Below are positions 6,798 to 61,940 of a stretch of DNA of 64,000 nucleotides, piece after piece. The stretch lies in assembly GCA_024679065.1 (NCBI GenBank), contig JAGIQG010000009.1, forward strand, positions 99,944,001 to 100,008,000, read 5' to 3'. The DNA comes from Sphyrna mokarran. Taxonomy: Eukaryota. The notes beneath the pieces are model-generated. The model saw nothing but the letters and a program-made list of their open reading frames with translations, made no database searches and was not told the DNA's origin. The stretch's first letter is position 1, and every line of letters starts with the position of its first letter. The position numbers were made by a program, and so were the translations under genes.

Positions 6798-6824
6798 CTT
6801 CTCTTTTGCTATGCTCATCATACT
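6798..6824 (-). CDS. 27-nt phase-1 microexon (EYDEHSKRE)
   Basis: cattttttag|AGTATGATGAGCATAGCAAAAGAGAAG|gtgagt; consensus donor. Confidence 0.78.
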
Positions 6825-9800
6825 CTAAAAAAATGATAACCGTTGAATAATTCAGAACATTTAATTGTTGTCATTTTCTTTTCCCAAATGCTCATCGGAA
6901 TCGCATAACTGTAACTAAAAGACGAAGTGGAATTAATTCATGCGCATTGATCTCACCTCTTTGTTTCAGCTGCAGATTCCGTTCTGTTATAATAAAACAG
7001 AATCATTGATTGTTTTCAGATTGACGATCATTCTGTAAGATCAACTATTTACATGTCATTTAGTATAGCACATGGTCTTCAACGCAAAAACAAAGTCCAT
7101 TATTTTTTTCTAATAATCTAATATTACCTAATATTTTAGGAAGGAAGCCGAGTCTTCCAGCCAATCACGAATGTTCCGCTTTGCTAAGCGTGTCAAGTAC
7201 GTATCAAAGACAAAGCCGTCATCTTGTAGTGAAAAAAATATCGCGAGTTTGTCCTGATGTACAAGAGTTGGAGGACGTAATGAAACATGGCCGTCCGCTC
7301 CCGTTCAAAAAGATTGCTGCATTCAGAGGTGAGCGTTGGAATCTCAGCCTGCTCTTCCCTTTTACTTGAATTATGTAGTTCTGCTGAGTTATTTATTTAC
7401 ATTTTAGTAGCCTGTGAACTATTGAAGGAATGCAATCCGCACGATCAGATTCTTTCATTTGAGGTACACTATTCATTGTAGATGATCAGTATGTGAACCA
7501 GCAACGCACAGTTGTTTTGGGGCGTAAATAGTACACGTTTCTTCTTGAAGCGTTCTTTTTTTCATCGGGTATTTCAGCTGCCTGATACAGTGCCACAACA
7601 TCATCTTGTGAGATTGGGCAAACTATTATCCCGCTGGCTACATCGCATTTCCTGATATTACACGCTTTTCTCTGGTGAGGTAGCAATGTTGTTATCACAG
7701 AGGAATACATGCATTCATAGTTGAACACATTTTCAAAAGCCCATACTACATGACTCCATCCTTAAAACTCGCCGAGTTTTGGTGACGGTGACGTCACTGT
7801 CAATCATGCGATGCCTAAGTGAGAGTGCGCATTTTTGCGAACCTCTGCCAATCCAATGGCCAATCCATCTCGGAGCCCAATTGATGGACGGCGATTCCAG
7901 TTATGCGTGTTCTAGGCGAAGCAGGAAGGAATCAAGGCCTTTGAACTGAGGAAATTGACAATGACAGAAACATTGTAAGTGGGCAAAATTACATTGAGGA
8001 TGGGAGCAGGAAGTGGTCTGAGAACGTGTATTGCGTTGGTGGAGTTGAGGTGGGAGTAGGGTGCGTGTCGGGTTGGGGGGTTGAGGGGGGAGGTAGAGTA
8101 GCGGTGATTGAGGGAACGGGCGATAAATATGTCGTTCCGTTCAGGGGGTTAGAAGCAAAACCATATTCCTCCTTCGTTTACATCCTTGTTGAGCCCCTGA
8201 GTGGTTGGCGGTGGGTGTAAGTGTCAGTTCTGATTAAAGCGATTGAAAGAAGCATACATTTCGTGGAGTCGGCTTGCTGAATTCATGAGACTTCATGAAG
8301 TGAAGTTTGTGGCGTAAACAGCCCGATGCCTCATGTTAAAACACAGGAGACAAACATCTCTTTTTTAATCAGAGCCGGAAGCTCACTTTATGATTTTTAA
8401 TGGCACACTTGTTAGCACTGCTGCTTTACAGTGCTTGGAGCCCGAGTTGGACTCCCTCCATGGGTCACTGTCTCTGTCGTGTCCTCCTCGTTCTCCTCGT
8501 GTCTTTGTGGCTTTCTTCCGGTTCCCCAAAGGTGAGGTGCATTAGCCATGCTAAATTATTTCTCTGTGTACTCAAACAGTCACCAGGCCGTCAACCCCGA
8601 ATCCGAGTATGCAAGGATCGACCAACGGAATTATTCATTTAGCTTGGGCGGTAATTTCCGCTGTCGCTCAAGCTGGGCCATAAAATCGCGCCACAGAAGT
8701 GGAACATGCCCACCATGAAGCATGGGCCGCAAACTCAGGATTTTCGGAGTGAATCCATTTTGTAAACGGATATGGCGAGAATTTATCAATTGAAGTTTGT
8801 TTAAAAGAGAATCGTTTTACTCAGATAGTGTACAGATGAATCAGTCAAGAATCAATTTCTGATTCCCACTCTTATCCTGGCAAATACAACTAGCCAGCAC
8901 GTGTTTCAAACTGTGGGAGTAAACCAGAGCACCCGGAGGAAACTCACGCAGACACGGGAGAACATAGAAATTTCACGCAGACAGTGGCCCAAGGCAGGAA
9001 TCGAACCCGGGTCCCTGATGCTTACCACTGGGCCACGCCTAATTAAGAACGTTGCATGATATGCAAGGAAACCAATGTAATTGCCTACTAATAATTTTTA
9101 GTACTCCAGTGACAGACTTCCAATCAAATCTTCCTCGACTTCATTTATATGTGAACACAAGTCGGAAACAAAACAGCTGTGGATAGATTAGACCAAGTTT
9201 GGACGACTGAAGTCATAGACTTTCGATTAAACCATTTACGAATCGTGTTTTTAAATTCCATCTTTTAATACCATTAACATAGAAAAGAAGTTCAAAGTAT
9301 TATCCGAACTTTGCCTAATTTCTTCATAATTGCTTTGTTTCCTATTTTCCTTCACCTTTATATGTAGCCGAGGAAGAATTGATCGGAATTCCGTCATTCA
9401 ATCATACGACAAAAACACCAGTTTGCAATTGCATTGATTTCCTCGCATAGCAATCAAAATCTCAAAGAATCGCACTGATTGATTGAAGGAACAAACCTCA
9501 CCATTCCTGGTTGAAATGCACTAAGATTGAAGATGCATAGTTTTTGACAGAATAGAACATAGAACATTACAGCGCAGAACATGCCCTTCGGCCTTCGATG
9601 TTGCGCCGACCAATTAGGAAAAAGCAATGACCCTCTAACCTAAACCATTCCCTTTTCGTCCATAAATTTATCTACTAACCTCTTAAACGCCACCAAACTT
9701 GGCGCATCTACAACTGCAGCAGGCAGGGCATTCCATACCCTTACCACCCTCTGGGTAAAGAACCTACCTCTGACATCCGTCCTATAACTACCACCCCTTA

Positions 9801-12800
9801 ATTTAAAGCTATGTCCCCTCGTGCTAGCTTTCTCCATCCTAGGAAAAAGGCTATCACTGTCCACCCTATCTAAACCTCTAATCATCTTATATGTTTCAAT
9901 AAGGTCTCCTCTTAGCCGCCTTCTTTCTAACGAAAACAACCTCAAATCCCTCAGCCTCTCTTCATAAGACCTGCCCTCCATACCAGGCAACATCTGGTAA
10001 ACCTCCTCTGTACCCTCTCCAATGCCTCCACATCTTTCTTATAATGTGGGGACCAGAACTGTACACAATACTCCAAGTGCGGCCGCACTAGAGTTTTGTA
10101 CAGTTGCAACATGACGTTGCGGCTCCGAAATTCAATCCCCCTACCAATAAAAGCTAAGTCTCCGTATGCCTTCTTAACAACCTCATCGACTTGATTACCA
10201 ACTTTCAGGGATATGCTTATCCCAGAACAATATCTTATCCCAGAATGCTTATCCCAGAATGATATGCTTATCCCAGAACAATATTCAGAACCAGAATCGG
10301 AATGCAATTAGACACGAAAATAGAAGGTGCAGCAAAAATGTCTCCATATTCTTCACGTAAATGTGCGATTGTTCTTTATTTCCGGAAGCAAACAAATTAG
10401 CTGCAAGTTACTCAATTGTTCGGGGCATTGATGTTCAATGGATATGCTCTTTCACCACATTAGGCAAGTTCAGTGGTAAACTAGAAACTCGAATGTATCA
10501 TTGTCACTTATTGGGAAGGCAAAAGCATATAAACAAAAGATGGTTGTTTTACACGTGTACAGGAAGCTAGTGTAAGCGCCAATGGGCGAGCACGACCACT
10601 ATAGACTCAGAATCAGGTTCAACAGCGGTACAGCTTTATTTAACGTCGACGAAGATGCAATCAGGATATACAAACAGCACTGCCCCGAAAGCACTCTGGA
10701 TGCCCGCCGGAATGGGCTACAGTTATATTCGAATTGTATGATTCAGATGTTCATGTTTTGTTTACAGTGTTTGACTCTGACTATTCTGTTTCGATGTTTT
10801 TAAGTACAGAATCAATGTTTTAAGTATGGTAATTGTTTCTGAATGATGCGTTTATCAATGGTCTAGAAGCTTTGAGGTTTCCTGAACAATGGGTTTTTGG
10901 CTGATCTCAGGAAGTCTTTTGAGCCCAAGAAGGCTTCCTTAATTATATTAATCCTCTCCTTAAATGTTTCTATAGAGGATCCCTGATATCACTTGATTAG
11001 GTCAGTGGTGCTGATTTGATTAGATGAGGGTGTACTTTTAATTTAGTTTCCGTTGGTGCCATTCTGAATGGTTCCCTTTGTGTAATAGACCTTGTTTGCA
11101 TTTACAAACATGCTTTTTGCCTGCTTCTCTGGATCTGTTTCCTTGTGATCTTGAATGGAGGGGTTCTGATTGCAGTTTAGTCTGTTCCATATTGTATACC
11201 TAGTTTCAGAAATTTGTTGTCAACTAACACTAGTGAGACAAAATCGGCACCAATGTTTACAGTGTTAGCCAAAATATTTGAAACAGATTGCAAATATGTG
11301 AAAATAGTTCAGAAGAAGGTATCACAGATTCATACCTGGAATGGGTGTGTTGTCTTTTTAAATGAAGTCGGGTTTAGAAGACAAGTATTTCACTCAATCG
11401 AAACGGAAGCTGTTCTCTGAGGTATTGAAAGTGCTTTTGAGGTTGTTTCAGAAACAATTACACATGATGGGCCAATGTATCAAGTTGAAGGATCGCCCCT
11501 TTCATGCAAATTGATCAGATTTAGTTTCTCACAGAGCAGTTAGGTCTTTGTAACTCACTTCCTGAAATGCAGATACAAACATCTTCATTGGACGTTTTGA
11601 AGACAATAAATAAGATATTGAAATGTCATCCCATGTAGACGGGAGTGTCTAGCGAAATCAGCCATGATCGTACAGAATGGCGCGTGATGGGACGGTCAAG
11701 TAATATTATCCTTTTAATTTGCACGTTCGTAAATAAATTAAGTGTAAATGGTTGGGGAACTATACTAAACTGTTTTAAGAATAATGCAGACTTTGTGCTT
11801 TGAAACTGAACGTCCTCTAATGAACGTCCTCCGTTGTTTCGTTTAGGCTGACGATACCATTATGAGGATCAGTAGTGAAATTGTAAAATTTCATGGTCCG
11901 AACACCATTGAAAATGTGAAATCGATTTATGGTTGTATTACAAAACAAAAAACATGCACGTTTTACTAACTGGTTTCGCCTTCAGCGTTACACACCGTCG
12001 TGTTTCTTACGTTCGTGCTTCTCTGTAAATCATAAGAATAGTTGAACATTTCAAAATGTTGCAGTCATCTATTCTTTCCGAAAACTGTTATCAGAATTTC
12101 AGAATGTTGAATGAATACAGATAATCAACTCGAATATTATCTCATTTAGGAGCTTACCATCTTCTTTGAGCTTTCGAAGATGCTCTGCTGAAAGCCGATA
12201 TTTATCGATTGAGGATTGCTCTCACATAGATGCAGATATAGCAACTATAAGAAGATCCCCTATTCACACTTAATTTATATTTTCCACAATTTCTTGTTTG
12301 AATGCAATAAGAACGTGAGCTAAAAAAAAAATCCCACACTAATATTTTAGAAATGTATCCCATTGTGGTGGTCAATATATACGTTGGTCATTTGGAAATC
12401 ACGAGTTTAAGCATGACTAAATTCACAGTTCTAATTTTGAAGGATTTTAATTTTTTTGAGTATTTGCTGCTGAATTTGATGGACTTCTTCATTACAAAAC
12501 TAAACAGATATTGGATACCAGTCAGATTTGTTCATTATAAGAGAATTTAAGAATACGCGATTTATTGAGAAAAATGCTAAGAGATTAGAAACGTAATTTG
12601 ACACTGTAATGATTATAAATTTGCAATTAAACATATTATGACAGTTGCTTATTAATACAGACTATTAAGTTACTTTGCGAAAAAGATATATTTCTCAGGC
12701 CACAGGACAACAATATGACACAAGGGTAACCCTTGACTAGGAGAAATACTCAATAGCCCTGTATTTAGACAGTGGGCTACTTCTTCCTACATCACTGAAA

Positions 12801-15800
12801 TGTTATAAACAATTGGCTAATTACAACAATTGGCTAAAGTGAGTTTTCAATATTCTAAAGCAACAAACCGAGAGGCTTCGAGCAACTATGTTTCAAGAAG
12901 ATGGGCAAGTTCAGAAAGGCAATCAAAGGCAAAGAATGTCGAGATATATGTGCAGGGAGATACACAGGGCAATTGTTATTAGCAAGGAGCAGATCACGAT
13001 ATTCATGAGAAGTAAAGGCAGATGAAAAGGAATTGTGACATGAGAATGATGTATTGATTGTTGTCTTTGAGAATCATTGATGGCGACGTGGACTGAGCAG
13101 TGCATGCACTATGAAGTCCGTTCAATTATTGCAATTCAAACTATTCGTCTGTCAATATTTCCTTATAATTGCTGTTGATTGTTACTTTGCTTTCTATCTT
13201 TCAGAGTTGCTACCTTTGCAATTGTCAATCCGTTTTGTGCAATCGTGAAGAAAATTGTCAACTTGCCAGCTGGTTAATTTTCTAGAATCTATGGGGACTT
13301 TCATAGTAACTTTATGCAATATGAATGTAAGCTATTTGTGTCTAATAAACAGACTTTGAGTCGCGTTCGGATGTTTTATCATAAATAAGTGAACTTGTGA
13401 ATCTTTGTCAGAAAAAAAATAAAGAATGAAGCGCATTTCCCAATTTGCTAATGGCAAATTGTCTATCAGGTTTGCATCAATGACAATATAATTACCGTGT
13501 AGTCTGAGATTGTGGGTGCAAGCTGAAATCCAAAGGATTGACTCACCAATGAGAAATACTTCTCGTTTTGGGCAGATGTTGCAGCAAGAGGTGAAATGAC
13601 AAACCTTGGGCTGACCTTTCATTTCAAAGGGCCCCAATGTATAATTGCTAAGCTTAAGTATGTTTCTCTTGTTCTGATTTATGCGCCAGTCAACTATCAA
13701 ATGATCAAAATTCTTCAGATCGCAGATTACATTCATATTGTAGTACAATCAGATAGCACATGCACGATGACCACCAGTTGCTATGGGTTTCGATTATTAT
13801 TGTAAAATTTTTATTTTTCCTCTTTTATGATTTGTTTCCTGTTTTCCCAATTGTGCAAACTCTTTGTGCTATTTTATAATATTCATTCCAATCTTGAAAC
13901 CTGCCAATGCCAGTGCACAGAAAAAAAAAGAAATGTGGTGGGAAGCTATCCATTTTCTATTTGAATTCAGCACCGTTGTACAATGAAATGTATTTGCAGG
14001 AACGATGAAAGGTTCACAATATGGTACGGAAATACTCATCCGAACTTTAAGCATTACAGGGTATGTTTCTGATATAAACTAAGTTTTAGCTAATAATGTG
14101 GAAATGTGCATGTTCATTTGACAGATGCAAGATGCAATGTGGTAAAGGATATTTTCGTATCAAAGCAACATACTGCGGATGCTGGAACCTGAAGCCAAAA
14201 AAAAACAGAACATTCTAGACTGACAGCACTTGTGTGAAGAAATTAGGACCAACATTTCGAGTCTACGTGATCCTTTCCAAAACAGTTTGATTCAGGGTCA
14301 TCTAATCTTGAAACGCTGGCTCTCTTCTACTGCCAGAAATGCTGTAAGACCTGCTAAGATTTACAAGAAAGGAGTTTTTTAAAATGTCCAATCGGGTATT
14401 TGTTTCCCAGCTGATATCTGCGATTGCAATACTAACGGCAGGATGAGTTTTTCTTTGGTGATGGAAATTAGTACTTTCAGACCATAAATTGCGAAATGAG
14501 ATTGGAAAATTATCTCCGCAAGTGAACGATGAAACAAGGTGGACACAAATGGGTGAACATATTTTTTCTTCGATCTTGGACGTGGGATACACGCCTCCCC
14601 GTCTATGAAGGATGTGGCAAAACTTTCAGGCCGACAATTGTGACAGCAACCAATTATTTTAGAATTAAGCATTCGCAGGAATGCGGATGACAATTCAATT
14701 ACAACAGTAAGCTTACGCCAAGAAGACATGTAAGTGGTCAGCAAATGAAAATACTTTGTGATGCATCCCAAAATTAACCAACAACTTCAAAGTCGAATAT
14801 CAACAATTTAGTAAGAATCCCTTTATTTTGCTCGTGTCCTTCCGATACTGACACACAACCATTAGTATTGAACTTCGCACTGCATATATTTGGATTATGA
14901 TTATGACTCATTTTCTATACCTGAATTAGTTCATTACGCATTTCAACAAGTGTACTATTTAGACATTTGTTGGTATGGCACACTTTATTGCAGCGGACTG
15001 TGCAAATACGATTTTCATTTCCAATTTGTATCAGAAATAGAAGCAGTTTGCTAATGTTTCCTCACCAGTATTTTTGAGTTCTTTAGACAAATTTGAAAGG
15101 TCTGAAAATAATAACAAGGCTGTGCTCAATTCGAAGAATTTGTATTAAAATGACACAAGAGAGGGAATGTTCATTTTGGAATTTTGTGCAAGAAATGGAA
15201 CCTATTATTGATCTGCATTTTTGGCGGTTTGCAACTTCTTTGCTCACTGAAAGAATTAATTCAAAGATCAGTTCTATGCCATAATATGGTTTTGCAAAAC
15301 TTCAAGGGTATTTACTAAAGTAAATGAAAATAAACAAAGTTGCATGTCAGGGCACGACTGGAATTACTGAAATTGTGCAAAGGCAAATAAAGACGACTAC
15401 GAATACAAAATATGCTTCAGCATCACATTGAGTATTTTATTTTCTAATCACGTGGGAAATCATTAGTTTGAACTGTAGCTTTCAATTGGGGACAGTAGAA
15501 AGAAGCCATATTGAATACATTAAATTATCCAAGACTGCATGCAATAAATTAAGAAAAAAAGGATTGAAAGCACATATTTGGCTTCACAATAAGCTTTGAT
15601 TTTCAGTCCAATAATGCTGCACTCAAAAACCTTTTGTCTTATCCCAATAGTTAAGTAATACAGTTGGCTGACCTTAACTTCAGCTGATCATTGCTGAATG
15701 TAGGTTTTGTACAATTTCAGGACAGATTATCACATAGTCTGGCACAGTTCCATCGGATAGTTGCCTGCCTCCAAAGTCTAGGCCGTTTGTTCAAAGTCAA

Positions 15801-18800
15801 TTTCTTTACGTTATTGGCAGTGAAGTAACGCGTCTCTTGGTACAGGTTTCCAGTCTGGTAACAAGGAACCATTCGGAACAAAGATAGCAAATGACTTTCA
15901 AATGACATATAAATATTATTCAGCATGAGGGAGTTAAAATCAGTATTGCAACGGCATCAAATTATGGAGGTGGAAACTATTTATAGTTGCAAAAGTTTTA
16001 ATGTTGTTTAGCAAATCAGGGCCTTTCAATTTCCAAACTAATTTACAGCACAACTCAATACCTCGGGCTCAATCATGATAAAAAGAGCACGTATTTTGAT
16101 TCATATCAGTAAATTCACATCTTCAATTGGGCATCCATACTTAGAATCTGTGCATCAGTAGCCATGATTGCCAACAGGAAGTAACAGTCTACATTCCATG
16201 AAGTTTAATGTGGCACTTTCAACGTACAAAACATTTGCAATTAAAAAAAAAAGCCACAATTTTCAAGACTTCGAGTATTGTATTTTGACACATTTTTTGA
16301 TGCACTCACTTCACAGAGGTCAATTAAAAGAGAAGCAGATCTATGTTCTCAGTTGATCTCGCATGCATCTGAATGCTATGACTAATATTTTTACGACAAA
16401 TAAACCAGTTAAAATGTTCACTGTCTCTCTGAAATTGAATTCATTTGTTCTCAACGATCAGGTATATAACATATTTGCAGAAATTTACATTTATTGCCAA
16501 ACAGAGACTTGTTCTAATTAATAGGGGTGAAAATCCAGTTATTAGTGGGGTCAGTAGACGAGTAATCATTTTTCAACACCAATCTTTTTTTGAATCAAGT
16601 GTTTGAAAATGATGCATAACAAGAAAATTTATGAAATGTTTTACCAGTCTTGTTTTCAAGTGTCGTTTTTTCTACATATAAAAGACAAAATTCTTTCAAC
16701 GTGCCAGCCGATCAATAAGACTATTATCAAAACAGAAGACACACAGAAATTTGAAACAAACTTTTGTTTAAATTCCTTCCCTGAATTTCTGATCATTATC
16801 AGATTACAAAAATATCGGTTTCTTTCCACGTCAATTAAAGAACACCACACCATCCCCATTCCACACCATTTCTTCCACCCCGCCCCCACTACTCCCCACT
16901 TCCCCTGCCAACCCCTCCAAAAACCCTACCCAGAAATTCCAAAGAAATGTTTTATTGTACACTTTGGAAAACAATTACAGTCCAAGTACCAGCTTTTGCC
17001 CGAAATGTACGGAAATTACATTTAAAGAAGCGAATGCATGAAGAAATTCGCAACAAAATTGCGAAAGGGAACAGAGGGGAAACAATAAATATTTGCACAT
17101 CTGGATCTCTCACTTATTCACTTTAGAATTTATATGTGAAGTTATTCACTTTGCAAGCATGAACCAGAAGGGAGATTACTACATCAATGGTTATAACATG
17201 GGAGAGGGAAGTGTTCAGCGCGATCTGGGCACTTGTGCACCAGTTACTGAAGGTCAACACGCAGTAAATAAGACAACTGCATGTTGGCCTTCATTGCGAG
17301 AGATTTCTAGCACAACTGCAGGAATGTGCTGCTGCATTTATACAGGGCTTTGTGAGGTCACACTCGGATATGGTTTGCAGTTTTGGCCTCCCTTTCTGAG
17401 GAATGATGTTGTTACATTCGCGGAGGTACAGCAAATATTTCATAAGCTGATTCGCATGATGGCGGAACTGATGTAGGAAAAGAGATTGACTAGGTTGGGA
17501 TTGCTTTCATTGGAGTTCATACGAACATGGGGGATTGCATAGAGACTCACACAATTTTAACTTGATTCGACGTGTAGATGAAGAGAGGGTATTCCTGATG
17601 GTAGGGGAATCTAGAACCAGGGGTCGTAGTCGTAGAACGGAGGTGAAGAGACATTTTTTCACCCAAAGTGTGGTGATTCTGTGGAATTCGTTTCCACAGG
17701 AAGTAGATGATTCTAAAACATTGAATGTATTCACGAGGTGGCTGGATGTAACACTTGGTGCGAATAGTTTCAAAGTTTCTGGGGAGAGAGCAGGATTAGA
17801 CTTTTGACTTTGACGATCACCATGATTGTAATGAATAGTGGAAAATGCTCGTAGGACCAAATAACCTCCGCCTCCATCTCCTCCTATCGATTATGTTTCT
17901 ATATTTCTATCATAAAAAAGCTTCAGGTAACAAATCGTGTTTTACATAGAAACATGCCAAAGCAAGAAGATCATCACATGGGGGCGTGTTCAAATCTAAA
18001 ACTTAAGGCTAGACCAGAGCAAATAAAGGTTATGAGAATGGGAAAGCATGTACACATTGATGTACTACTGAAAGTATATAAATGTATATTGTGAACAAAA
18101 ACAAACTAAAATGAGAAACATTTGAAAACTGTGGAATTCTGATAGGCATGATCATCCGTGTGCACATCTCTAAGAAAAAGAAATCTTTGTACAAAGGGAC
18201 AATGAATAACTTGGAGTATTAACGGTCATCATTTTTTTGGCTAGGTTGCGCAGGAAAGTGTTCAGAAACCCCTTGCAAAATGTGTACGACATTAGTCACT
18301 TCAACGTGGTAAACACAATTCAAAGCAGGCATAGCAGGGCAACATCTGGAATGGATGGCTTCTGTTTTGAAGCAGTGATGGAGCTTTCATGAGAACTATG
18401 CAACTTGATTGAGAAAGATAATAGCAGGCACAAGTCTGACAGAAGAGATGGAAAGGATATTTAATCCTTTGTAGAAAACTAGAACTAATGTTTTAATGTT
18501 TAAAATAGAGGGTTCGCCGATTCTACACGGAGACATGAGGTTTTGATTCTCTGAGATGGCACTGGACCTTTGGAACTCCATGTCTCAAATGCGTTTTACC
18601 TAGTTCGTATTCTTGGTTTCAAGATACATGCAGAAAGATTCTCATTAAATATATTGTGAAATGATATTAGGGTAGATGGGATATTATTCTCAAATTTGTC
18701 ATGAGCTTATTGAAATGCGGTACAAGCACAAAAGTCCAAGTGACCTTCCGTTGTTTCTGATTAGTATGTCTATACTAAATGTTATTTAAAAAGTTGTTGA

Positions 18801-48800: not shown

Positions 48801-51800
48801 CTGATGTTGACTGTTGCTGATGTTGACAAAGTTGAGGATCAGTTGAGGGAAATAAGGATTACGAGGAAAGAGGTGTTGGGGCTGTTAGGCAGCTTAAAGA
48901 CATATAAAGCTCCGGGGCCTGATGACATTTACCCCAGGCTGCTAAGGGAGTCGAGGGAAGACCTAGCTGGGCCTCTGACGCAAATCTTTGTCTCTTCCTT
49001 GGACACAGGTGAGGTCCCAGAGGACTGGAGGATAGCAAACGTAGTACCGTTGTTTAAAAAAGGTCAGAGGGATCACCCAGGGAACTATAGGCCGGTGAGC
49101 TTGACTTCAGTTATAGGTAAGCTAATGGAGAGGATCCTTAGGGACAGGATGTATGAGCATCTGGAGCGCTGCGATCTGATCAGGGATACGCAGCATGGCT
49201 TCGTCAAGGGGAAGTCTTGTCTTACAAATCTAGTGGAATTTTTTGAAGAAGTGACAAAAACAGTTGATGAAGGACAGGCTGTTGATGTCGTCTACATGGA
49301 TTTCAGTAAGGCGTTTGACAAGGTTCCCCATGGTAGACTGATAGAGAAGGTGAAGGCGCATGGGATACAGGGTCGGGTATGTAGATGGGTCGAGAACTGG
49401 CTCGGGAGGAGGAGACAGAGGATAGTAGTGGAAGGCTCTTTTTCCGGCTGGAAGCCTGTCGCTAGTGTAGTGCCACAAGGCTCAGTACTAGGTCCTCTTC
49501 TATTTGTGGTCTACATAAACGACTTGGAAGTTGGGGTAGGTGGTGAGATCAGCAAATTTGCTGATGACACCAAGATGTTTGGATTGGCGGGTACAGAGGA
49601 GCAGTGCCAGGCAATACAACAGGACATAGGTAGGTTGGTAGACTGGGCAGATAGATGGCAAATGGAATTTAATCCGGATAAATGCGAGGTGATGCATTTT
49701 GGCCGGAAAAATGTAGAAGAGAGTTATAGGATAAAAGGTAAAACTATACGGAGCATAGAGACGCAGAGAGACTTGGGGGTGCAGGTTCACAAGTCTCTGA
49801 AGGTGTCCTCACAGGTGGAGAAGGTGATAAAGAAGGCATATAGTATGTTAGCTTTCATAGAAAAGGGTATAGAATACAAGAGTAGGAGTTTGATGTTGCA
49901 GTTGTATACAACTTTGGTTAGGCCTCACTTGGAATACTGCGTCCAGTTCTGGTCGCCATACTATCGGAAGGATGTGGAGTCCTTGGAGAGAGTGCAGAGG
50001 AGGTTTACCAGGATGCTGCCTGGTATGGAAGGACTGTCTTATGAGGAACGATTAAATAGACTGGGGTTGTTTCCCTTGAAAGACGTCGGCTTAGAGGGGA
50101 TCTCATAGAGGTGTATAAGATTATAAGGGGTATAGATAGAGTAAATGGAGGTAAACTTTTTCCACCTTCAGAAATGGATAGGACGAGGGGTCATGGCCAT
50201 AGGGTGAGGGGGGCTATGTATAGGACGAATATTAGAGGGCAGTTTTTCACACAAAGGGTAGTGGGGGTGTGGAATGCACTGCCGAGTAAGGTGGTGGGAG
50301 CAGGCACGCTTGGGCTGTTTAAGGGTCTCTTGGACAGCCACATGAGCGGTATGCAGATAGAGGGATATAGTAGGACTGTTTAACTACGGCTTTTTTTCCA
50401 CAGGTAATTCCTCCATACTTGACCAACAAGGAGCATGCATTCGGCAGGTGGTGCGAGGACAGCTCTTGGATGTTGATTCATGGGTTGCCTGGTACTTCAT
50501 GTCGTAAATGAGTGCTTTATGTGGACCGTCTGAAGGGCACCATGACAGCTCAGAGACTATCGATGTGGCTGTGCAGACACTTGGAATTGGGCCGGTGTCT
50601 GCGGGAGTTTGCGCGTTCTCCCCGTGGTTGCGTGGGTTTTCTCCGGGCACTCCGGTTTCCTCCCACAACCCAAAAATTCGCTCTTAGGCTGATTGGGAAA
50701 CAAATTGTCCCTATAGTGAGAGTCTTCCATATTAGGAATAACCTAATTTTATATTATGATAATGGAATTGCTACTATATAGTTATGACGGCGGCGCGGGC
50801 TCGTTGGGCCGAAGGGCCTGTTTCCCGTGCTGTGTTGCTCTAAAAAAAACAGCTCAACTATCATACGTACTTATTCAGCTAATCAAACGTCCACACATAG
50901 TGACACATATTCTTACTGAATCAATAAATCTGGAAGAAACATTCAAACCATGAACCATTTAAAGTAATTTGAATTGGTGAGCTGTTGGCTGACATAGGAA
51001 TGGCGGGAAAAGGGCGTTAGTGGGAGTTATCTGTCCATAAACCAACTCTACATCGAGCGTTGGGCTTAAAGTGAAGTAGTGAACTGACAATCTTGGAAGA
51101 AATTGCAGTAGAATTCAATTGGGTGCAGGTTTGTGGCAATGAGAATTCGCTGTGCATTTACGGTGAACCCAATACGTAGGCCAGTTAATTGCTTGCTTCT
51201 AGGAATATGCTATTGTTCTGACAAATGGAATAATAGTTATGTCAATTAATAGATTAACATATATTTTAAAAAAAATGTTGCCCGGTATCAAGCAAATTAT
51301 ACTTAAGAAGAAAACATTTTGAACAGTCTTTATCAATGCAAATCTCACTGCAGCGTGAACACATAGCTTCAAGACGGTTATTTCTCCCACCTGACTTTTT
51401 TAGTGCATATTTCAATTCTTCCAGCTCTAAATATCAAACGGGATTCCAGATAAATCATGTTCTGCTATCATTTTGTTCTGCTTTTTTAAGGCTGATATAT
51501 GGATTAGGTAGTTTTGGGATCACGCCAAATAAAATGAGAACACGGAAACCACACACAATATCCAATAGATGTTGCATTGCCTTAAACATTTTCCGTAATC
51601 TTGGGAATTAGTAAACGTTGTTTACGATGTTCGCTAATGGGACATCTCAACAAATGGCGGTATTGCATCAATTTGCATCGAGACAAAAATGTTTTATGAC
51701 ATAGAGACCAAGTGCCACGCTCAAATTCTGTTTCCTCCAGTGTAAATTACAAGAAGATAACCTATTGACCAATTTTATCACACCAATAATTATGCATAAT

Positions 51801-57800: not shown

Positions 57801-60800
57801 TTCTTGATGGCCTTTTTTAAAGAAGTGCAATATGTTATTCTTCCATTGCTAAAAGCTTTCCTTATAATGGAATGTTGTTTCTGGCTTTGTGAGTATGAAC
57901 AACTCTCTGATGAGGTCATGTCAGTCTCTACAACAAATTACTTGGTGGTGCCAGACTAATAAGTTTTAAATTGTAGTTTTTTTTTAAAACGACACCTGGT
58001 TTTGCGGTAGATGCATTAGCTACACCTAGAGCCTATAGTTCAAGGCAAATATGTTTTAGCACAATGCTGAACAGGGAGATGCGTAGTTGTGTGTTCCAAC
58101 TGCAATGACTGTTTACTGATTGTAGGCTTCCCATGCTGAATGTCACATGGAATAAATGGGAAGGAGGGGGTGGTTCAATTTGGGTGAGGAGGCGTTAATG
58201 CCCTTGGCTTTTGCTGCTTTTTAACTGGCCAATACATGGGGCTGCTGAGTCCTGAAATATCTATCTATCTATCTCACCTGGAGCCGTACCGACTGATTTC
58301 TGAACTAGCAAGAAGGAAACACAACTTGACCACAGCTTTCACAACTTACTATTGGATGGGCCTCTGGTAATGACAACCTGCGTTTTAATGGACGCTGCAT
58401 GTTATTTGTATAGATAGTCTGGAACTTTAAGATATAGAATAACATTTATTCCAGTGTGTGACGCTGCTATCAATAGAACTGGGAAATCCACTACCAGTCT
58501 AAATAACTAAAAGTTTACTTAACACACAATAGAAAACTTCATGATTCTACATATGAAACGACGTGGTGGAATATTTCTGCTTAGCTTACGAATGTACAAG
58601 GTCACACTGCCTAGTAAACTAAGTCTTCCTAATAAGGATATGGCAATTACAATTTAGAAGGCAATTCATTCTAAACAATAATCAGAGTATGGCTGTACAG
58701 TGATCTCATATTGTCTCATGCATGGCATTGGAGAATTGCAAAACATTCATAAGGTTACAAAAATGACGATGGAAAATTGTTATACCATTCTCAGGAGTGG
58801 GGGTGGGTTGCCGTCTGAGGAAACATGGAAGCGGTCAGATTTGTATCCAAGCGTTTGGAAGAGTGATGGCGGAATTTGTTGACATCTTTAAGATTTTGAG
58901 AGGCATTGACAGTTTGGATGTCGAGAGGATGTTACCACATGTAAAATCTGGACAGATTGTTCAAATGTAAGAGCTCGTACGTTTAAAGCAATGATCAATA
59001 TTTTTTCTATCAAACAGTTGTGAATCTTCGGACTCTGAACAACAAAAGAACATGGAAGCAGGGAAAATGTTTTTTTTGAGTCTGGGTAGATGGAATATTA
59101 TTTAACAAGGTGGTGAAATGTATCGAGTATAGGCAGCAATTAAAGTTCGCAACTGCAATCAGCTCGGCCATGTACATATTGCATAGCAGAGAATGTTCGA
59201 TGGGAGTAGCTTTGTCCGGCTCCTAATTCGCTTATGTGCGTAAATAGTATCATTTTCAGAACAATAGGAACCCAGCACGTCCGTTGAAAAGGCAAGACTG
59301 AAAGATGACCAATTATGTTCCAATGGCAATGCTGTGCGGATATTGAATCTCCTTCTCCTTTTAAGGTTTCCAAAACAAAGAGAGTTTCCGAGATCCAATG
59401 ACTTCTCTCGAAATGCTGATCAGAATTTCGATGTGTTCTGATTATTAAACTGTGTTCTCTTTCCGTTTATGTCTCCTGTGATATATAAATCATTGTGTCT
59501 ATAAACAGCAAGAGCTGGCCAAAGTTCAGAAATGGACTGTCAATTGACGATATGCCAAATAACAGCAGTCTGGAACAGCTGAGATTCCAGAAGTTGTCAT
59601 TGTCCGGTATTAATTCTGCTTCATCTCAATTAGATTAAATATCTGTGAGTTTTCTACTGGGAGAGATTCACAGCATTATTTCCAACTTGATATAACCAAT
59701 GTTTTTGTTTTCATTGTCTTTTACCTTGCACAACCTTTAGAAGTTTTCGGATTTCTGCAAGAAAGAAGACCAAATTAACAGTTGCTTATTTTCAATTAAA
59801 ACATTATTTTAAGATTCGAATCGCACAGTTAGTTGTCTTGAATTATTGATTTATTATACGTATTTGTGTCTGAATGTCTAAACAGATCTGAGGCAGGGTG
59901 TAATTGTAATGGATTGGCATTACTATTTTACTTCCATATTTATGATGTTTGGTCAAATTCGAAATTGGTGAGGATTGAAATGAAATCTGCAAACAGGAAC
60001 ATACGAAGCACTTTAGGGGGAACAACATTTTCTTTATTCAGGTTAAAAGTTTTGGATATTTGGAAACTGAAACAACGACGTATGTATTAAAACACTTAAA
60101 ACTCAGACCCGATCAATTAGCTCTGCAGCTTTCTACTGACGCATGTTTTATCTATTTTGCCTCCTTTTTTTTTGATTGCTTTGACATAATCTGTATTAAC
60201 CTTTTCGATTTCAATGCATTCTGCTTGTTGCACAAGAGAGTAATAATAAAACTCTTGCCACATAAACCAACTATCTTTACAAGTTATGCACGATCGTTTA
60301 AAATTAAACCGTCTGATAAATGACTTAAAGTATGGTTCAACCGCCAGGCTCCAATCGCCATTCTTTCAATTACCATTTCCCAGGAAAAACACGAGATATT
60401 ATATCCGGGCTGAGAAAGTGGAATTGAGCTGAAGCGTCATGTAAAATATATTGCATTATAAAGTAGGCTATCAAGTCTATGTTTTGTCTTCTGCTGCCAT
60501 GCATTGTAATAATCCGTAAGTTAGTGCAAGCAAATAAGTAAGTTTATATAATTGACATTTGTACCACTTTTCCTGATATAAATCTAATTTCTGAATTTTC
60601 CAGAAGATCTGAAGTAATTTTAGGCAACGTCTGTGATAGCTGTCTTCCTTGTTGCAAAGCATTTTGATATGAATTACAATATTTATCAGGCCAGAATTTA
60701 ATAAGTCAAGAATGATATTCACTTCAATCATAAATTTTCAAATGTGACAATGTACAATTAAAATTCTGAAACTACTACAATTCATATTGAAATAAGGAAT

Positions 60801-61940
60801 ACATTTTTGGAGTGTTGAATGGGATAATTGTAGATTGGTGGTTGTAAAATTGTCAAATTCCAGGGAAAAGAGCATTGCCAGACTCCTTTGGAAGTGTGCT
60901 GCGTCTTTTTTCTGTGTTTAAAATGTTAAATCAAATGCAAGTAGAAATAGAAATAAAACATTTATATCGAAGGCAAAACAGCAGGTTTAACAAATCAACA
61001 GACATTCGTACATTTAAATTATTTTAAATTCAGCCTGTCAATTTAATTAGGAACTTAGATCCCATTAAACTATTCAGTTTAAATCCGATGGTGTTGGCAA
61101 GCTAGGGGTAATGTTATTGTGTGGAATATTGATAAGTCATCACTGGCGGTGCAAATGAGGAGCAGAAAAAAAACTGCCACCTGCCGCACTTCGTAACTTT
61201 TAGGTCAAAGCATCATTTTGATAAGAATGAAAAACAAATGAAAGAACAACATAAAGTATCCAGAATATACCAGAAGACATAAAATCTCGTTGTAGAGAGA
61301 GACTAAAATTCTATGTTTTTTGATAATAGGTGAGAATTGTACCATCTGAAGAACCATCCATTAGAATTGTGCTTTATTCGGTTGGCTAATAATTTAGCTC
61401 ACTTTTTCAGCGTACTTAGATAAATACTTTTTTATTTGTTGACATTATAGAAAGCATCAGAGAGTAATTTTAAGTTAACCACTAAAATTAAAGAACACAT
61501 TCACATTTAGATTATGAGGTGAGGTATTCCTCTTTGAGTGGTTAGGTGTTACTTCTCAGAGGGGGATCCAACTCCATTTCATAACAATGCCTAACTTTGG
61601 CAAAACATGAAATCTGCTAAATTTTCAAAATGTGTCTTCTGTTTTGAAATGTCATTAGACAAAATGCAAACATTTCTGAACAGAACTGTAATGGAATATA
61701 TTCGTGGCAGGAATATTGCAATCTGATTTAATCCCTTGTTTCTGCGGGATTTTTCCACAGAAATCTGTCAGAAAAAAAAAAATCAATACTTGGTATTTTG
61801 GAATATGAGTAATATTCCAATTCAATTTTCATTGTTGTACAATGATGGCGTTCTTAACTTGGATGGATAAATGAAGCACATTAGAAAATTTTGGTATAAA
61901 TTCTTTATTTTACCTTCATCTTTTCTCTCAGCTTCTTCTA
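6798..61940 (-). CDS. Partial multi-microexon gene: coiled-coil-like region, probably the cytoplasmic tail of a butyrophilin/BG-like Ig-superfamily protein; 5' end outside the window to the right
   Basis: 19 phase-1 microexons (567 nt) with AG/GT sites join without stops: [189 protein letters not shown]. Family is inferred from neighbouring IgV/IgC/TM relics. Confidence 0.7.
6957..6983 (-). CDS. 27-nt phase-1 microexon (ERNLQLKQR)
   Basis: ttattataacag|AACGGAATCTGCAGCTGAAACAAAGAG|gtgaga. Confidence 0.78.
8395..8590 (+). mobile_element. HE1/V-SINE-like tRNA-derived SINE (5' part)
   Basis: ggcacacttgttagcactgctgctttacag...tgggtcactgtctctgt...ctcgtgtctttgtggctttcttccggt...cattagccatgctaaatt. 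Confidence 0.7.
8900..9040 (-). mobile_element. HE1/V-SINE-like SINE fragment
   Basis: ctgtgggagtaaaccagagcacccggaggaaactcacgcagacacggg...ggaatcgaacccgggtccctg. Confidence 0.85.
9551..10213 (-). mobile_element. Young 5'-truncated CR1/HER1-type LINE
   Basis: [50 protein letters not shown]; (TTCTATG)n tail; same subfamily as the 25.1-26.9 kb copy. Confidence 0.95.
11200..11730 (+). mobile_element. Old CR1 3' fragment
   Basis: gttcagaagaaggtatcacagattcatacctggaatg, ttctcacagagcagttaggtctttgtaactcact. Confidence 0.6.
11996..12022 (-). CDS. 27-nt phase-1 microexon (EKHERKKHD)
   Basis: tatgatttacag|AGAAGCACGAACGTAAGAAACACGACG|gtgtgt; an internal gtaaga would give an in-frame 12-nt form. Confidence 0.65.
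12158..12184 (-). CDS. 27-nt phase-1 microexon (EHLRKLKED); 30 nt if the upstream AG of a CAGCAG acceptor is used
   Basis: ggctttcagcag|AGCATCTTCGAAAGCTCAAAGAAGATG|gtaagc. Confidence 0.75.
13093..13288 (-). pseudogene. Possible decayed TM/juxtamembrane exon of copy A
   Basis: ccccatag|DSRKLTSW(frameshift)[26 protein letters not shown]...; lies between the IgC relic and the microexons; weak. Confidence 0.3.
13547..13780 (-). pseudogene. Decayed IgC-like exon, phase 1-1, 234 nt
   Basis: cccatag acceptor and gtgagt donor; (A)[34 protein letters not shown]...[20 protein letters not shown]; C-x(11)-W spacing, later Cys, start resembles BTN IgC (A-x-G); one in-frame TGA. Confidence 0.55.
13981..14602 (-). 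pseudogene. Decayed IgV-like exon, copy A, split by a repeat insertion
   Basis: Acceptor ccttcatag; [13 protein letters not shown](R, CGT from TGT?)S; then after the insertion [11 protein letters not shown]...SFLQIHFI, which aligns with [12 protein letters not shown] of the 60.5-kb copy; stops and frameshifts. Confidence 0.5.
14161..14385. repeat. Short interspersed imperfectly palindromic repeat inserted into IgV relic A
   Basis: atactgcggatgctggaacctgaa...aaacagaa head and agacctgctaagattt tail; a related half-copy lies at 19.6-19.7 kb. Confidence 0.6.
15066..15101 (-). CDS. 36-nt phase-1 microexon ([12 protein letters not shown])
   Basis: ttattattttcag|ACCTTTCAAATTTGTCTAAAGAACTCAAAAATACTG|gtgagg. 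Confidence 0.83.
16645..16671 (-). CDS. 27-nt phase-1 microexon (EKTTLENKT)
   Basis: cttttatatgtag|AAAAAACGACACTTGAAAACAAGACTG|gtaaaa. Confidence 0.72.
17120..17910 (+). mobile_element. CR1 3' fragment
   Basis: [45 protein letters not shown]; ttctat tail. Confidence 0.9.
18390..18770 (+). mobile_element. Old CR1 3' fragment
   Basis: Degenerate CR1 3' end (actagaactaatg...ctttggaactc). Confidence 0.5.
19029..19055 (-). CDS. 27-nt phase-1 microexon (ELEEHKRID)
   Basis: tatatacatag|AGCTTGAAGAGCACAAGAGAATCGATG|gtcagt. Confidence 0.78.
19202..19228 (-). CDS. 27-nt phase-1 microexon (EQRLQQKDR)
   Basis: tattcataacag|AACAGCGGCTTCAGCAGAAAGACAGGG|gtcagc. Confidence 0.78.
21006..21041 (-). CDS. 36-nt phase-1 microexon ([12 protein letters not shown])
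   Basis: cttctatttcag|ACCTGCTAAACCTATCTAAAGAACTTAGAGAAACTG|gtgagg; paralog of the 15066 exon. Confidence 0.83.
21805..22210 (-). mobile_element. Two adjacent HE1/V-SINE-like SINEs
   Basis: Two consecutive copies of tttagcatggcc...gaaact...ggaattgaa/ggaatggaacccggg...gtgcta(a)cc...c(a)cc/ctgtg. Confidence 0.8.
22427..22453 (-). CDS. 27-nt phase-1 microexon (EKRLQVQTP)
   Basis: caattgttttag|AAAAACGACTACAAGTACAAACACCAG|gtctgt. Confidence 0.72.
22540..23105 (-). mobile_element. CR1 3' fragment
   Basis: taagaccgtaagacataagagcaga tail, agattcaccactctctgg, ccaaaactactcacaatact. Confidence 0.9.
23533..23568 (-). CDS. 36-nt phase-1 microexon ([12 protein letters not shown])
   Basis: ctttttctttccag|AAATAGAAAAACTGACCGAGAATTTGGAACTGTGCG|gtaagg; very strong splice sites. 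Confidence 0.82.
25139..26896 (+). mobile_element. Young 5'-truncated CR1/HER1-type LINE (RT domain to 3' tail), frameshifted
   Basis: [57 protein letters not shown]; ttctatgttctatgttctatg tail. Confidence 0.97.
27891..28019. mobile_element. Short GC-rich MITE-like element
   Basis: Terminal inverted repeats tgggcagaattttactg ... cagtaaaattccggccca. Confidence 0.6.
28289..28315 (-). CDS. Candidate 27-nt phase-1 microexon (ANKLKESTL), inclusion uncertain
   Basis: ttctgttttgaag|CAAACAAATTAAAAGAAAGTACTTTAG|gtaaac. Confidence 0.5.
29757..29786 (-). CDS. Candidate 30-nt phase-1 microexon ([10 protein letters not shown]), inclusion uncertain
   Basis: cactttttttag|AAGATGCAGTTATGAAAATTACACTGATTG|gtgtgg; open, but less coil-like and with a weaker donor. 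Confidence 0.4.
30380..32040 (+). mobile_element. Old CR1 ORF2 fragment
   Basis: Degenerate [37 protein letters not shown] motifs and 3' end. Confidence 0.85.
32722..32751 (-). CDS. 30-nt phase-1 microexon ([10 protein letters not shown])
   Basis: ttttatatttcag|AAATTCAAAAACTTAGAAAGGGTTCGCAAG|gtaaac. Confidence 0.8.
32990..33215 (-). pseudogene. Truncated, decayed IgV-like exon, copy B (C-terminal half only)
   Basis: [34 protein letters not shown](frameshift)[13 protein letters not shown] carries the D-x-G-x-x-x-C F-strand motif; homologous to 41.55-41.75 kb. Confidence 0.6.
34290..34470 (-). mobile_element. SacSINE/DeuSINE-like fragment (paralogous copy at 43820-43990)
   Basis: gccagcattctttgccatccct...cacatataggcctgacc...gcaggtttccgtccctaa. 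Confidence 0.45.
34503..34529 (-). CDS. 27-nt phase-1 microexon (EEERDIKDA)
   Basis: gtttcatgtag|AAGAGGAAAGGGATATAAAAGATGCAG|gtaaag. Confidence 0.8.
35760..36200 (+). mobile_element. Decayed SacSINE/DeuSINE-like element (paralogous copy near 45.8-46.2 kb)
   Basis: ggtgaaatgaaaattcagataataaatctggaaataaa...gatttgccactcttg...ctttctgaaatattctagcaaatctcttagttcaaggacaattatg. Confidence 0.5.
36570..37175 (-). mobile_element. CR1 3' fragment
   Basis: tagaacatagaac tail; [19 protein letters not shown]. Confidence 0.92.
38401..38436 (-). CDS. 36-nt phase-1 microexon ([12 protein letters not shown])
   Basis: ttttatgtttag|AACTCGAAGAATTGAAAAATGCACTGAAAAAGACAG|gtggga. Confidence 0.82.
38680..39006 (-). 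mobile_element. HE1-like SINE
   Basis: cattcggcccattgaat...ctgtggaaggaaactgaagcacctggaggaaccacacgca...gctgtgaggaagcgatgctaaccactctgcc. Confidence 0.85.
39499..39738. other. Assembly gap (240 N)
   Basis: Run of N. Confidence 1.
40200..40710 (+). mobile_element. Old CR1 3' fragment
   Basis: gagtccagaatccggggtgacagttt, cagaaagcaataaacttttggaattctt. Confidence 0.6.
41293..41322 (-). CDS. 30-nt phase-1 microexon ([10 protein letters not shown])
   Basis: poly-T tract+cag|AAGTTCAAAAACTTAAAAAGGAATGGCAAG|gtaaac. Confidence 0.82.
41555..41889 (-). pseudogene. Decayed IgV-like exon, copy C
   Basis: [11 protein letters not shown](fs)[92 protein letters not shown]; B-strand V-x-I-x-C-S-F, F-strand D-x-G-x-x-x-C, about 77 residues between the cysteines, 7 stops. 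Confidence 0.68.
41930..43010 (+). mobile_element. CR1 RT-3' fragment inserted just upstream of IgV relic C
   Basis: [36 protein letters not shown]; ttctatgatctatgttctatg tail; absent from unit 1. Confidence 0.93.
44019..44045 (-). CDS. 27-nt phase-1 microexon (DEEGDRRNA)
   Basis: gttccttgcag|ATGAAGAAGGGGACAGAAGGAATGCTG|gtaata. Confidence 0.78.
44600..48790. repeat. G-poor, C/A-rich degenerate low-complexity tract (paralog of 35-37.9 kb)
   Basis: Composition, plus shared words such as caacacttccagatg and cacctagtcacatatc (36500/46555). Confidence 0.7.
48796..50383 (+). mobile_element. Young 5'-truncated CR1-type LINE with a near-intact RT ORF
   Basis: 436-aa ORF with [55 protein letters not shown]; one frameshift near 50080. 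Confidence 0.97.
50560..50849 (+). mobile_element. V-SINE-core-like segment plus CR1-type 3' tail
   Basis: gtctgcgggagtttgcgcgttctccccgtggttgcgtgggttttctccgggcactccggtttcctcccacaaccc...gggccgaagggcctgtttcccgtgctgtgttgctctaaaaaaaa. Confidence 0.8.
51391..51426 (-). CDS. 36-nt phase-1 microexon ([12 protein letters not shown])
   Basis: gatatttag|AGCTGGAAGAATTGAAATATGCACTAAAAAAGTCAG|gtggga; paralog of the 38401 exon. Confidence 0.8.
52090..53470 (-). mobile_element. Old CR1 RT-3' fragment
   Basis: [24 protein letters not shown]; ctttgtcaaatgcctttttggaaatc (reverse complement of DFxKAFDK). Confidence 0.85.
54280..54985 (+). mobile_element. Rex1/Babar-type LINE 3' fragment
   Basis: [17 protein letters not shown] (LNxxKTKExxxDFR motif), tggtatggctcctgctctgcccaagac, cactgtgtataa...gtggcaataa tail. 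Confidence 0.75.
55385..55880 (+). mobile_element. Old CR1 3' fragment
   Basis: atgcagaaaaggtttactagaatgcttccagg; ctgtgactctatgact tail. Confidence 0.75.
56470..56860 (+). mobile_element. Decayed Gypsy-type LTR retrotransposon gag relic
   Basis: [21 protein letters not shown] resembles the Gypsy gag L-x-x-x-G-x-x-T-Y/F-x-x-x-x-x-L-x-x-P-E motif; followed by a GQSTTKFA segment. Confidence 0.5.
56925..57065 (-). mobile_element. CR1 3' tail fragment
   Basis: aagaacattatataggaacaaacacttcggccctccaagcctgcaccgacc. Confidence 0.7.
58690..59240 (+). mobile_element. Old CR1 3' fragment
   Basis: gattttgagaggcattgacagtttggatgtcgagaggatgtt, cagttgtgaatcttcggactct. Confidence 0.7.
59725..59754 (-). CDS. 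30-nt phase-1 microexon ([10 protein letters not shown])
   Basis: ttctttcttgcag|AAATCCGAAAACTTCTAAAGGTTGTGCAAG|gtaaaa; paralog of the 41293 and 32722 exons. Confidence 0.8.
60109..60312 (-). pseudogene. Decayed TM + charged juxtamembrane exon of copy D, phase 1-1, 204 nt
   Basis: catttatcag|[65 protein letters not shown]|gtctga; length is a multiple of 3, three stops. Confidence 0.5.
60490..60830 (-). pseudogene. Decayed IgV-like exon, copy D
   Basis: [52 protein letters not shown](fs)[19 protein letters not shown]; Y-x-C motif, cysteines ~200 nt apart; same position in the duplicated unit as copies B and C. Confidence 0.62.
61914..61940 (-). CDS. 27-nt phase-1 microexon (xEEAERKDE)
   Basis: gttccttacag|TAGAAGAAGCTGAGAGAAAAGATGAAG|gtaaaa; paralog of the 44019 and 34503 exons. 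Confidence 0.8.

Follow-up and report, generated by a model that had tools for sequence, protein, structure and literature searches.

The question raised by this locus is whether a series of very short exons, each set apart in non-coding DNA, belongs to one gene and, if so, to what kind of gene. The window, that is, the whole stretch of 64,000 nucleotides analysed, corresponds to C1548:99,944,001-100,008,000 (plus strand) in a genome of 2.77 Gb. Coordinates preceded by w are contig positions minus 99,944,000, and 1.02 Mb of DNA around the window was examined (w-480 kb to w+544 kb). An earlier note on this DNA had reported 19 minus-strand exons between 6798 and 61940, and these were borne out. 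All of them have an AG acceptor and a GT donor, and the last base is G in 19 of 19. Their lengths are 27 nt (11 exons), 30 nt (3) and 36 nt (5), giving a total of 567 nt. The joined exons comprise 189 codons, with no stop in the phase-1 frame versus 11 and 20 stops in the remaining two frames. The junction codons had all been described as Glu or Asp; this is correct for the 18 internal ones (15 Glu, 3 Asp), but the junction into exon 61940 reads Val, which is avoided if the tandem acceptor at 61937 is used. The positions are collected in Table 1.

Table 1. Microexons of the window, head exons of the three genes and candidate last exon of gene A. Positions without prefix are those of the window.
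Feature	Position	Strand	Remarks
Microexon 1	61914..61940	-	27 nt; acceptor 61937 gives 24 nt; chain runs on upstream past the window
Microexon 2	59725..59754	-	30 nt
Microexon 3	51391..51426	-	36 nt; paralog of 38436, flanks homologous
Microexon 4	44019..44045	-	27 nt; paralog of 34529
Microexon 5	41293..41322	-	30 nt; paralog of 32751
Microexon 6	38401..38436	-	36 nt
Microexon 7	34503..34529	-	27 nt
Microexon 8	32722..32751	-	30 nt
Microexon 9	23533..23568	-	36 nt
Microexon 10	22427..22453	-	27 nt
Microexon 11	21006..21041	-	36 nt; paralog of 15101
Microexon 12	19202..19228	-	27 nt
Microexon 13	19029..19055	-	27 nt
Microexon 14	16645..16671	-	27 nt; best-scoring new exon beyond the 18-exon training set
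Microexon 15	15066..15101	-	36 nt
Microexon 16	12158..12184	-	27 nt
Microexon 17	11996..12022	-	27 nt
Microexon 18	6957..6983	-	27 nt
Microexon 19	6798..6824	-	27 nt; 4 more microexons and the candidate last exon past the left end of the window
Gene A head	w536,383 (L073:2267-2383)	-	acidic 39-codon exon
Gene B head	w-96,585 (L030:3299-3415)	-	acidic 39-codon exon
Gene C head	w-473,560 (L074:6324-6440)	-	acidic 39-codon exon
Candidate last exon, gene A	w-37,763 (L024:2125-2237)	-	strong acceptor, 38 codons, GC 0.48

Three pairs of 27-nt exons enclose very short introns: 19029-19228 (146 nt), 11996-12184 (135 nt) and 6798-6983 (132 nt). The other introns around them measure 1-9 kb. The first two pairs are preceded by a 27-nt and a 36-nt exon, which together encode three heptads; these are missing before the third pair, and no additional 27- or 36-nt exon could be recognised between 11996 and 6983.

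Since the exons had first been chosen for being stop-free, an independent test was made with a splice matrix. Training used 35 exons from the neighbouring paralog and nothing else, and candidates of 15-60 nt were accepted with length and frame unfiltered. The total number of candidates was alike on both strands (81 minus, 77 plus). Those of 27, 30 or 36 nt numbered 29 on the minus strand versus 4 on the plus strand, and 16 of the 19 window exons were recovered. At a stricter threshold the numbers were 21 and 1, with 14 of 19 recovered. In six of six duplicate pairs the identity between exons (0.63-0.86) exceeded that between flanking introns (0.45-0.63), and the flanks contained 3-15 gap runs per 150 nt. 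The pooled values were pS = 0.50, pN = 0.31 and dN/dS = 0.49 (47 non-independent pairs, including some exons outside the window), which corresponds to a mild constraint; the signal was weak for the 30-nt class and for one 27-nt class. The homology of the flanks shows that a 36-27-30 block (51426/44045/41322) was recently duplicated with its introns as 38436/34529/32751. The window exons are predicted, with high confidence, to be real protein-coding microexons.

The earlier note had proposed a hidden gene of symmetric phase-1 microexons. It was right about the kind of gene but not about its size, as the chain runs well past 19 exons. The same exon scan revealed 12 further exons of 27, 30 or 36 nt upstream of the window (w78,545-143,563). 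These are followed by an array of 27-nt exons on the minus strand (w150,373-264,340; C1548:100.094-100.208 Mb) and by 29 exons at w301,656-521,071, while four exons lie downstream of the window (w-16,397 to w-35,236). The chain, from w521,071 to w-35,236, occupies a single strand and includes gaps of 34 kb and 37 kb in which no exon was detected. Just three head exons were found along with it. The head is an acidic first coding exon of 39 codons with a conserved Tyr motif, and its three copies, all on the minus strand, define three tandem paralogs named here genes A, B and C. A six-head profile yielded no fourth head in 874 kb, including all of gene A. The head of gene A is located 474 kb upstream of the window, on the same strand and with no other head between. 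Gene B was followed from w-96,585 to about w-423,400, and gene C was examined up to 6 kb past its head. Genes B and C have conserved sequence in common about 1.3-1.9 kb upstream of their heads, likely a promoter or a 5' untranslated exon.

At the other end of the chain, the candidate last exon has an AATAAA 35 nt past its stop. It encodes a stretch of 17 residues with a moderate hydropathy of 1.62, followed by basic residues, and contains a weak internal donor after 33 nt. Tail-exon searches found no homologs of it, and the C-termini of the relatives described below are unlike it and unlike one another. The working model of gene A, consisting of the head, about 96 microexons and this tail, amounts to 996 codons over ~574 kb with one terminal stop. 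The microexons of the 96-exon model measure 27 nt (65 exons), 36 nt (19), 30 nt (6) and 24 nt (3), besides lengths of 33, 18 and 15 nt. Outside the window the model exons were chosen by score, and some will be wrong or missing. The single terminal stop is a sign of consistency and not a proof, because the model exons were picked stop-free. It is rather likely that a single transcript links the window exons with the head of gene A. Every exon is a multiple of 3 nt with phase 1 on either side, so the frame survives when exons are duplicated, dropped or skipped, whether singly or in blocks.

The upstream array contains about 44 copies of one 27-nt exon, of the type DRDKMDIRS, with a hydrophobic period of 3.0. 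Both AG and GT were kept in 33 of the 44 profile-matched copies. No stop was found in these 33 versus 4 in the 11 broken-site copies (p = 0.002), a few of which are offset by indels. As far as the sequence tells, this is what exons that arise and decay under selection would look like. Speculatively, the 9-residue repeat, when read across the junction, bears a loose likeness to the nonad beta-layer consensus [aliphatic]-A-T-K-[polar]-[DE] given in the accessible part of PMC4786415.

Relatives in elasmobranchs were sought with the head and the rod as queries; members of the family were found, none of them colinear with the 19 window exons. With the head as query, S. torazame GCB74337.1 was found (72% identity, head only; the rest of this protein past the head, P0001, has no counterpart at the shark locus), together with S. 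canicula XP_038673008.1 and XP_038671248.1, both on a 163-Mb contig. The rod as query gave S. torazame XP_072329363.1, XP_055520637.1 from the skate Leucoraja and about 20 isoforms from the electric ray Narcine (XP_069775393.1-XP_069775417.1). In the catshark RefSeq models P0002, P0005 and P0006 the acidic head is joined directly to the rod, the first exon of which is a 36-nt one. Gene B is colinear with XP_072329363.1 over 45 exons (307 of 447 residues identical, 69%; 34 of 44 neighbours abut exactly), and the 5' part of gene A with XP_038673008.1 over 16 exons (88 of 152 identical, 58%; 13 of 15 abut exactly), the exon sets for both counts having been picked from earlier matches. The relatives resemble gene A in their colinear microexon rod, and the catshark ones also in the head; they differ in that they cover the 5' part of gene A or paralog B, with the window exons outside their span. 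No colinear ortholog or annotated protein for the window exons was present among the best 8000 candidates of 4-753 residues. At the level of predicted proteins, the neighbouring paralog is shown to be kept in both sharks and rays. The automatic names of the relatives are generic coiled-coil labels (CENP-E-like, EEA1-like, myosin heavy chain-like, uncharacterized). No Pfam family passed the cut-off for P0001, P0002, P0005, P0006, P0007, P0011, P0015 or the tail, and the hydrophobic segments in the relatives scanned were just weak, variable C-terminal ones.

The Narcine isoforms are informative on splicing. A common C-terminus is present in 14 of the 16 isoforms read, and 13 of these 14 are shorter than X1 by 8, 8, 9 (six times), 17, 18, 20, 29 and 30 residues, differences that are all sums of 8, 9 and 12. 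This reads as microexon skipping, at least in the isoform models. RefSeq isoform models are usually based on RNA-seq.

The window exons were also compared with the catshark B protein, P0006. With the junction residue dropped, the best match fell at an exon start for ~9 of the 19 window exons and ~20 of 35 in a wider set, against a background of 0.097 and shuffled values of 1.6 (mean) and 4.8 (maximum) for the 19 exons and 2.9 (mean) for the 35; about a dozen of the 46 starts in P0006 were deduced from gaps, and a common helical register may add to the signal. Like the rod exons of the acidic-head family (P0002, P0005-P0023), which measure 24-36 nt, the window exons are phase 1 at both ends, and they show the same exon types in register. 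They very probably belong to the same family as the neighbouring paralog, as judged from these comparisons.

The encoded chain was then considered as a protein. It had been described as a continuous coiled-coil-like sequence; the first nine window exons support this (period 3.42, p = 0.007), but the last ten show no significant period (p = 0.48). These ten carry much charge and might fold as a single helix or as a less tight coil. The 189 residues of the window consist of E, K, R, D, Q and L to 74%, with one Pro and two Gly. The idea that units of 9, 10 and 12 residues replace heptads did not survive the analysis, as 9 + 12 = 21 residues equals three heptads. Pairs of 27- and 36-nt exons, which amount to exactly these three heptads, are common in gene B. 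Furthermore, 9 + 10 + 12 = 31 residues corresponds to three heptads plus one decad, with a period of 3.43. In five consecutive 27-30-36 blocks, three of them inside the window, the hydrophobic period was 3.43, near 31/9 (p = 0.003 versus shuffles of residues and of exon order, the lowest value that 300 shuffles can give). In the 36- and 30-nt exons, positions 2, 5 and 9 are hydrophobic in 82-100% of cases; the 27-nt exons show a less regular preference at position 4 (50%). Going by the residue pattern, the 31-residue unit would carry a single stammer in the sense of PMC4786415, the available text of which describes stammers as a major strain on helices.

Structure prediction was made on P0006, which represents the paralog and not the window chain. 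AlphaFold returned seven long helices, no strands and a disordered head (pLDDT 70.8, pTM 0.19, four sequences), and a homodimer prediction for residues 60-345 scored 0.01. The look-alikes in the Atlas were generic coiled coils (GOLGA2, CCDC30, CCDC89, HMMR); the matches listed had at most 130 of 256 features in common and disagreed with one another, without a family-level match. A PDB search gave a single weak match, BST2 (E 0.008). Tetherin/BST2 has an N-terminal transmembrane segment ahead of its coiled coil, whereas no transmembrane segment was found after the acidic head in genes A and B or in the relatives examined.

A BTN/BG-like receptor had been inferred in the earlier note from the exon design. 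In one respect the comparison was apt: symmetric phase-1 microexons code for a helical, largely coiled-coil-like chain, a design like that of the chicken BG tail, and a coiled-coil segment made from short split-codon phase-1 exons is present here as in BG and butyrophilin genes. Chicken BG genes, in the accessible part of PMC5938342, consist of leader, IgV and transmembrane exons plus many 21-nt heptad exons, of which there are 27-37 per gene, with a few exons of 18 or 24 nt (PMC5938342, PMC4046983, both in part). The likeness extends to an exon number that varies by duplication, to alternative splicing that alters the length of the coil and to a tandem family beside a TRIM/B30.2 region. In contrast, gene A has no leader, IgV, transmembrane or 21-nt exons, and is built from ~96 exons, mostly of 27, 30 or 36 nt, over ~574 kb. 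Mammalian butyrophilins, which combine Ig domains, few heptads and B30.2 (PMC4046983, in part), resemble it in their few short cytoplasmic heptad repeats; their Ig, transmembrane and B30.2 exons were not found at gene A.

As the genome-wide searches scored only part of the candidates (the best 150 of 228 for SPRY and the best 150 of 1261 for V-set), a local profile search was used. A profile made from 15 V exons of the same genome was run against 26,821 open-frame pieces of the 1.02 Mb and gave no IgV (best E 1.2); six leave-one-out spikes were recovered at E 6e-10 to 1e-19. The phmmer search of the 1.02 Mb with a B30.2 exon of the same genome found no B30.2 (best E 2.9). No credible leader, IgV or transmembrane exon was found upstream of the window. 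The same applies to a signal peptide or transmembrane exon between the head and the first microexons of genes A and B, and the 3.6 kb that separate the head of gene B from the microexon following it show no Ig- or TM-like exon. P0002, P0005-P0008, P0011, P0012 and P0015 show neither Ig nor an N-terminal transmembrane segment, and Pfam, PDB and Atlas searches with the relatives as queries gave no BG match. Most of the 150 SPRY matches listed are on C1548 at 91.8-112.9 Mb, and those closest to the locus lie at 98.9 and 102.0 Mb. The exon at 98.91 Mb was considered as the end of gene A and rejected, since it lies beyond genes B and C and the 27 kb preceding it contain no such microexons. It belongs to an unrelated gene, of which it forms the last exon, intact, GC-rich and coding for B30.2 (PRY-SPRY) (L082:2400-3060; C1548:98,912,400-98,913,060, minus strand).

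These results bear on what the window exons could be if they were not the rear part of gene A. A butyrophilin/BG-like receptor, with leader, IgV and transmembrane exons and then a microexon cytoplasmic tail, would account for the symmetric phase-1 coiled-coil exons, which are as in BG tails (PMC5938342, in part), and for the position of the locus within the large SPRY/B30.2 cluster. Nevertheless, it is highly improbable given the lack of IgV in 1.02 Mb with a working positive control, the lack of Ig- or TM-like exons just after the gene B head, the lack of Ig or N-terminal transmembrane segments in the relatives examined, and the absence of 21-nt exons from the 96-exon model. The same SPRY-rich neighbourhood might suggest a TRIM-like or other coiled-coil protein ending in B30.2 (PRY-SPRY). 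Such a protein is extremely improbable: neither the DNA from the last microexon to the head of the next gene nor the rest of the 1.02 Mb has a B30.2 exon, the nearest listed minus-strand SPRY exon lies, as said, past genes B and C, and the stretches scanned for RING or B-box motifs have none. It is also improbable that the exons are decaying remnants of tandem duplications, out of use in protein. Decay would agree with the splice sites lost in 11 of 44 array copies, with a dN/dS of just 0.49 and with the lack of an annotated protein covering the window among the candidates searched, but 19 of 19 window exons keep AG, GT, length and frame despite a synonymous difference of ~50% and gap-rich flanking introns, and stops are confined to array copies with lost splice sites.

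More weight has to be given to the view that the window exons are part of another gene in this family, with a first exon that differs from the known heads and would lie between ~w330 kb and w145 kb. The catshark gene A model XP_038673008.1 stops after 270 residues, a long way upstream of the window, and the end exons of paralog B resemble gene A exons at w352-330 kb, so gene A proper would end earlier and its downstream part might represent a second gene or an extension that is seldom used. The 37-kb gap at w301-264 kb, exon-free and with a 1.83-kb tandem repeat, points the same way. However, the catshark gene B model ends in an apparent intron read-through, and short models therefore need not mark gene ends. 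Moreover, the six-head profile places none of its three heads within gene A apart from its own start, and a convincing last exon was sought at w330-300 kb without success. A signal-peptide-like frame at w342.6 kb, tried as a leader, lies inside a repeat, and a CpG-rich stretch at w396 kb, tried as an internal promoter, is repetitive and recurs at w74-75 kb. A separate gene is considered unlikely.

On balance, the window exons are taken to be the rear part of gene A, a gene of ~574 kb and ~96 microexons, the first of three tandem paralogs. With moderate confidence, gene A would belong to a shark-and-ray family predicted to form long coiled-coil rods inside the cell, which have a short acidic head but no Ig, upstream transmembrane or B30.2 parts; the cytoplasmic location is suggested by the fact that no leader was found. 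The function of the rod we infer from anatomy alone. Two or more copies would pair into a parallel coiled coil, a rod of about 900 residues. In the cytoplasm such a rod could serve as a spacer, as a tether or as a scaffold that binds the cytoskeleton, comparable to a golgin or to the soluble BG 'zipper protein'. The Tyr conserved in the head, which has acidic residues around it and is part of a Y-x-N sequence, an SH2-type motif, could be a phosphorylation-dependent docking site. Exon skipping would tune the length and register of the rod. The closest precedent in function is the zipper protein, a BG tail in soluble form, for which displacement of tropomyosin and regulation of actin-myosin are described (PMC5938342, in part).

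The weakly hydrophobic last exon possibly anchors the rod in a membrane, although this is doubtful. Golgins (giantin, golgin-84) and SLMAP are long coiled-coil tethers with a C-terminal membrane anchor, and gene A would resemble them in its long rod and possible hydrophobic C-terminus. We know of no golgin- or SLMAP-type gene that is built from 27-36-nt exons. A tentative general picture is that of elasmobranch 'ruler' genes, in which 24-36-nt exons would serve as plug-in rod segments. Exon birth and death together with skipping might set the length and twist of a ~1000-residue rod that has a regular stammer every 31 residues and a 32-fold nonad array, by which the helix may be broken up into alpha/beta segments. 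Located within a TRIM/B30.2 cluster, the family might be a headless counterpart or the source of the BG-type microexon tail.

With ~3 kb of coding sequence over ~574 kb, the gene is nearly invisible to ORF finders, and for its relatives the public databases offer fragmentary models under misleading names. Should the model prove right, this would be an extreme case of a protein made almost entirely from symmetric microexons and kept in sharks and rays. It would also provide a natural series for how exon duplication and skipping tune the length, the register and the regular stammers of a coiled coil. The design itself is already known from BG tails, and automatic models of the paralogs exist; its occurrence in a family without an Ig head bears on the origin of that design. 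Searches of open-access literature listed no description of the acidic-head shark gene family, and the identifiers of six relatives gave no match there either.

The introns contain a variety of repeats. Within the window, fragments of LINE-type reverse transcriptase were observed at 48783-50105 (+; RVT_1, E 9e-34), 25118-26644 (+), 9640-10038 and 41979-43010. The frame at 1-411 (-), which continues past the left end of the window (L021) and has a second copy near w-21,200, resembles the GIY-YIG endonuclease end of a Penelope-like element; Pfam gave no match for its in-window part. At ~w277,000-298,000 (L032-L034) an intron contains tandemly repeated units of ~1.83 kb with up to 96% identity, and no convincing microexon was detected among them. 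On the plus strand, ~600 bases of almost pure C at L012:6950-7650 (w180,950-181,650) are possibly an assembly artefact. An LTR-retroelement or provirus-like sequence was also seen on the plus strand at L003:4070-9442 (w88,070-93,442), with stop-broken frames that, from reading their translations, are gag-, RNase H-, integrase- and envelope-like.
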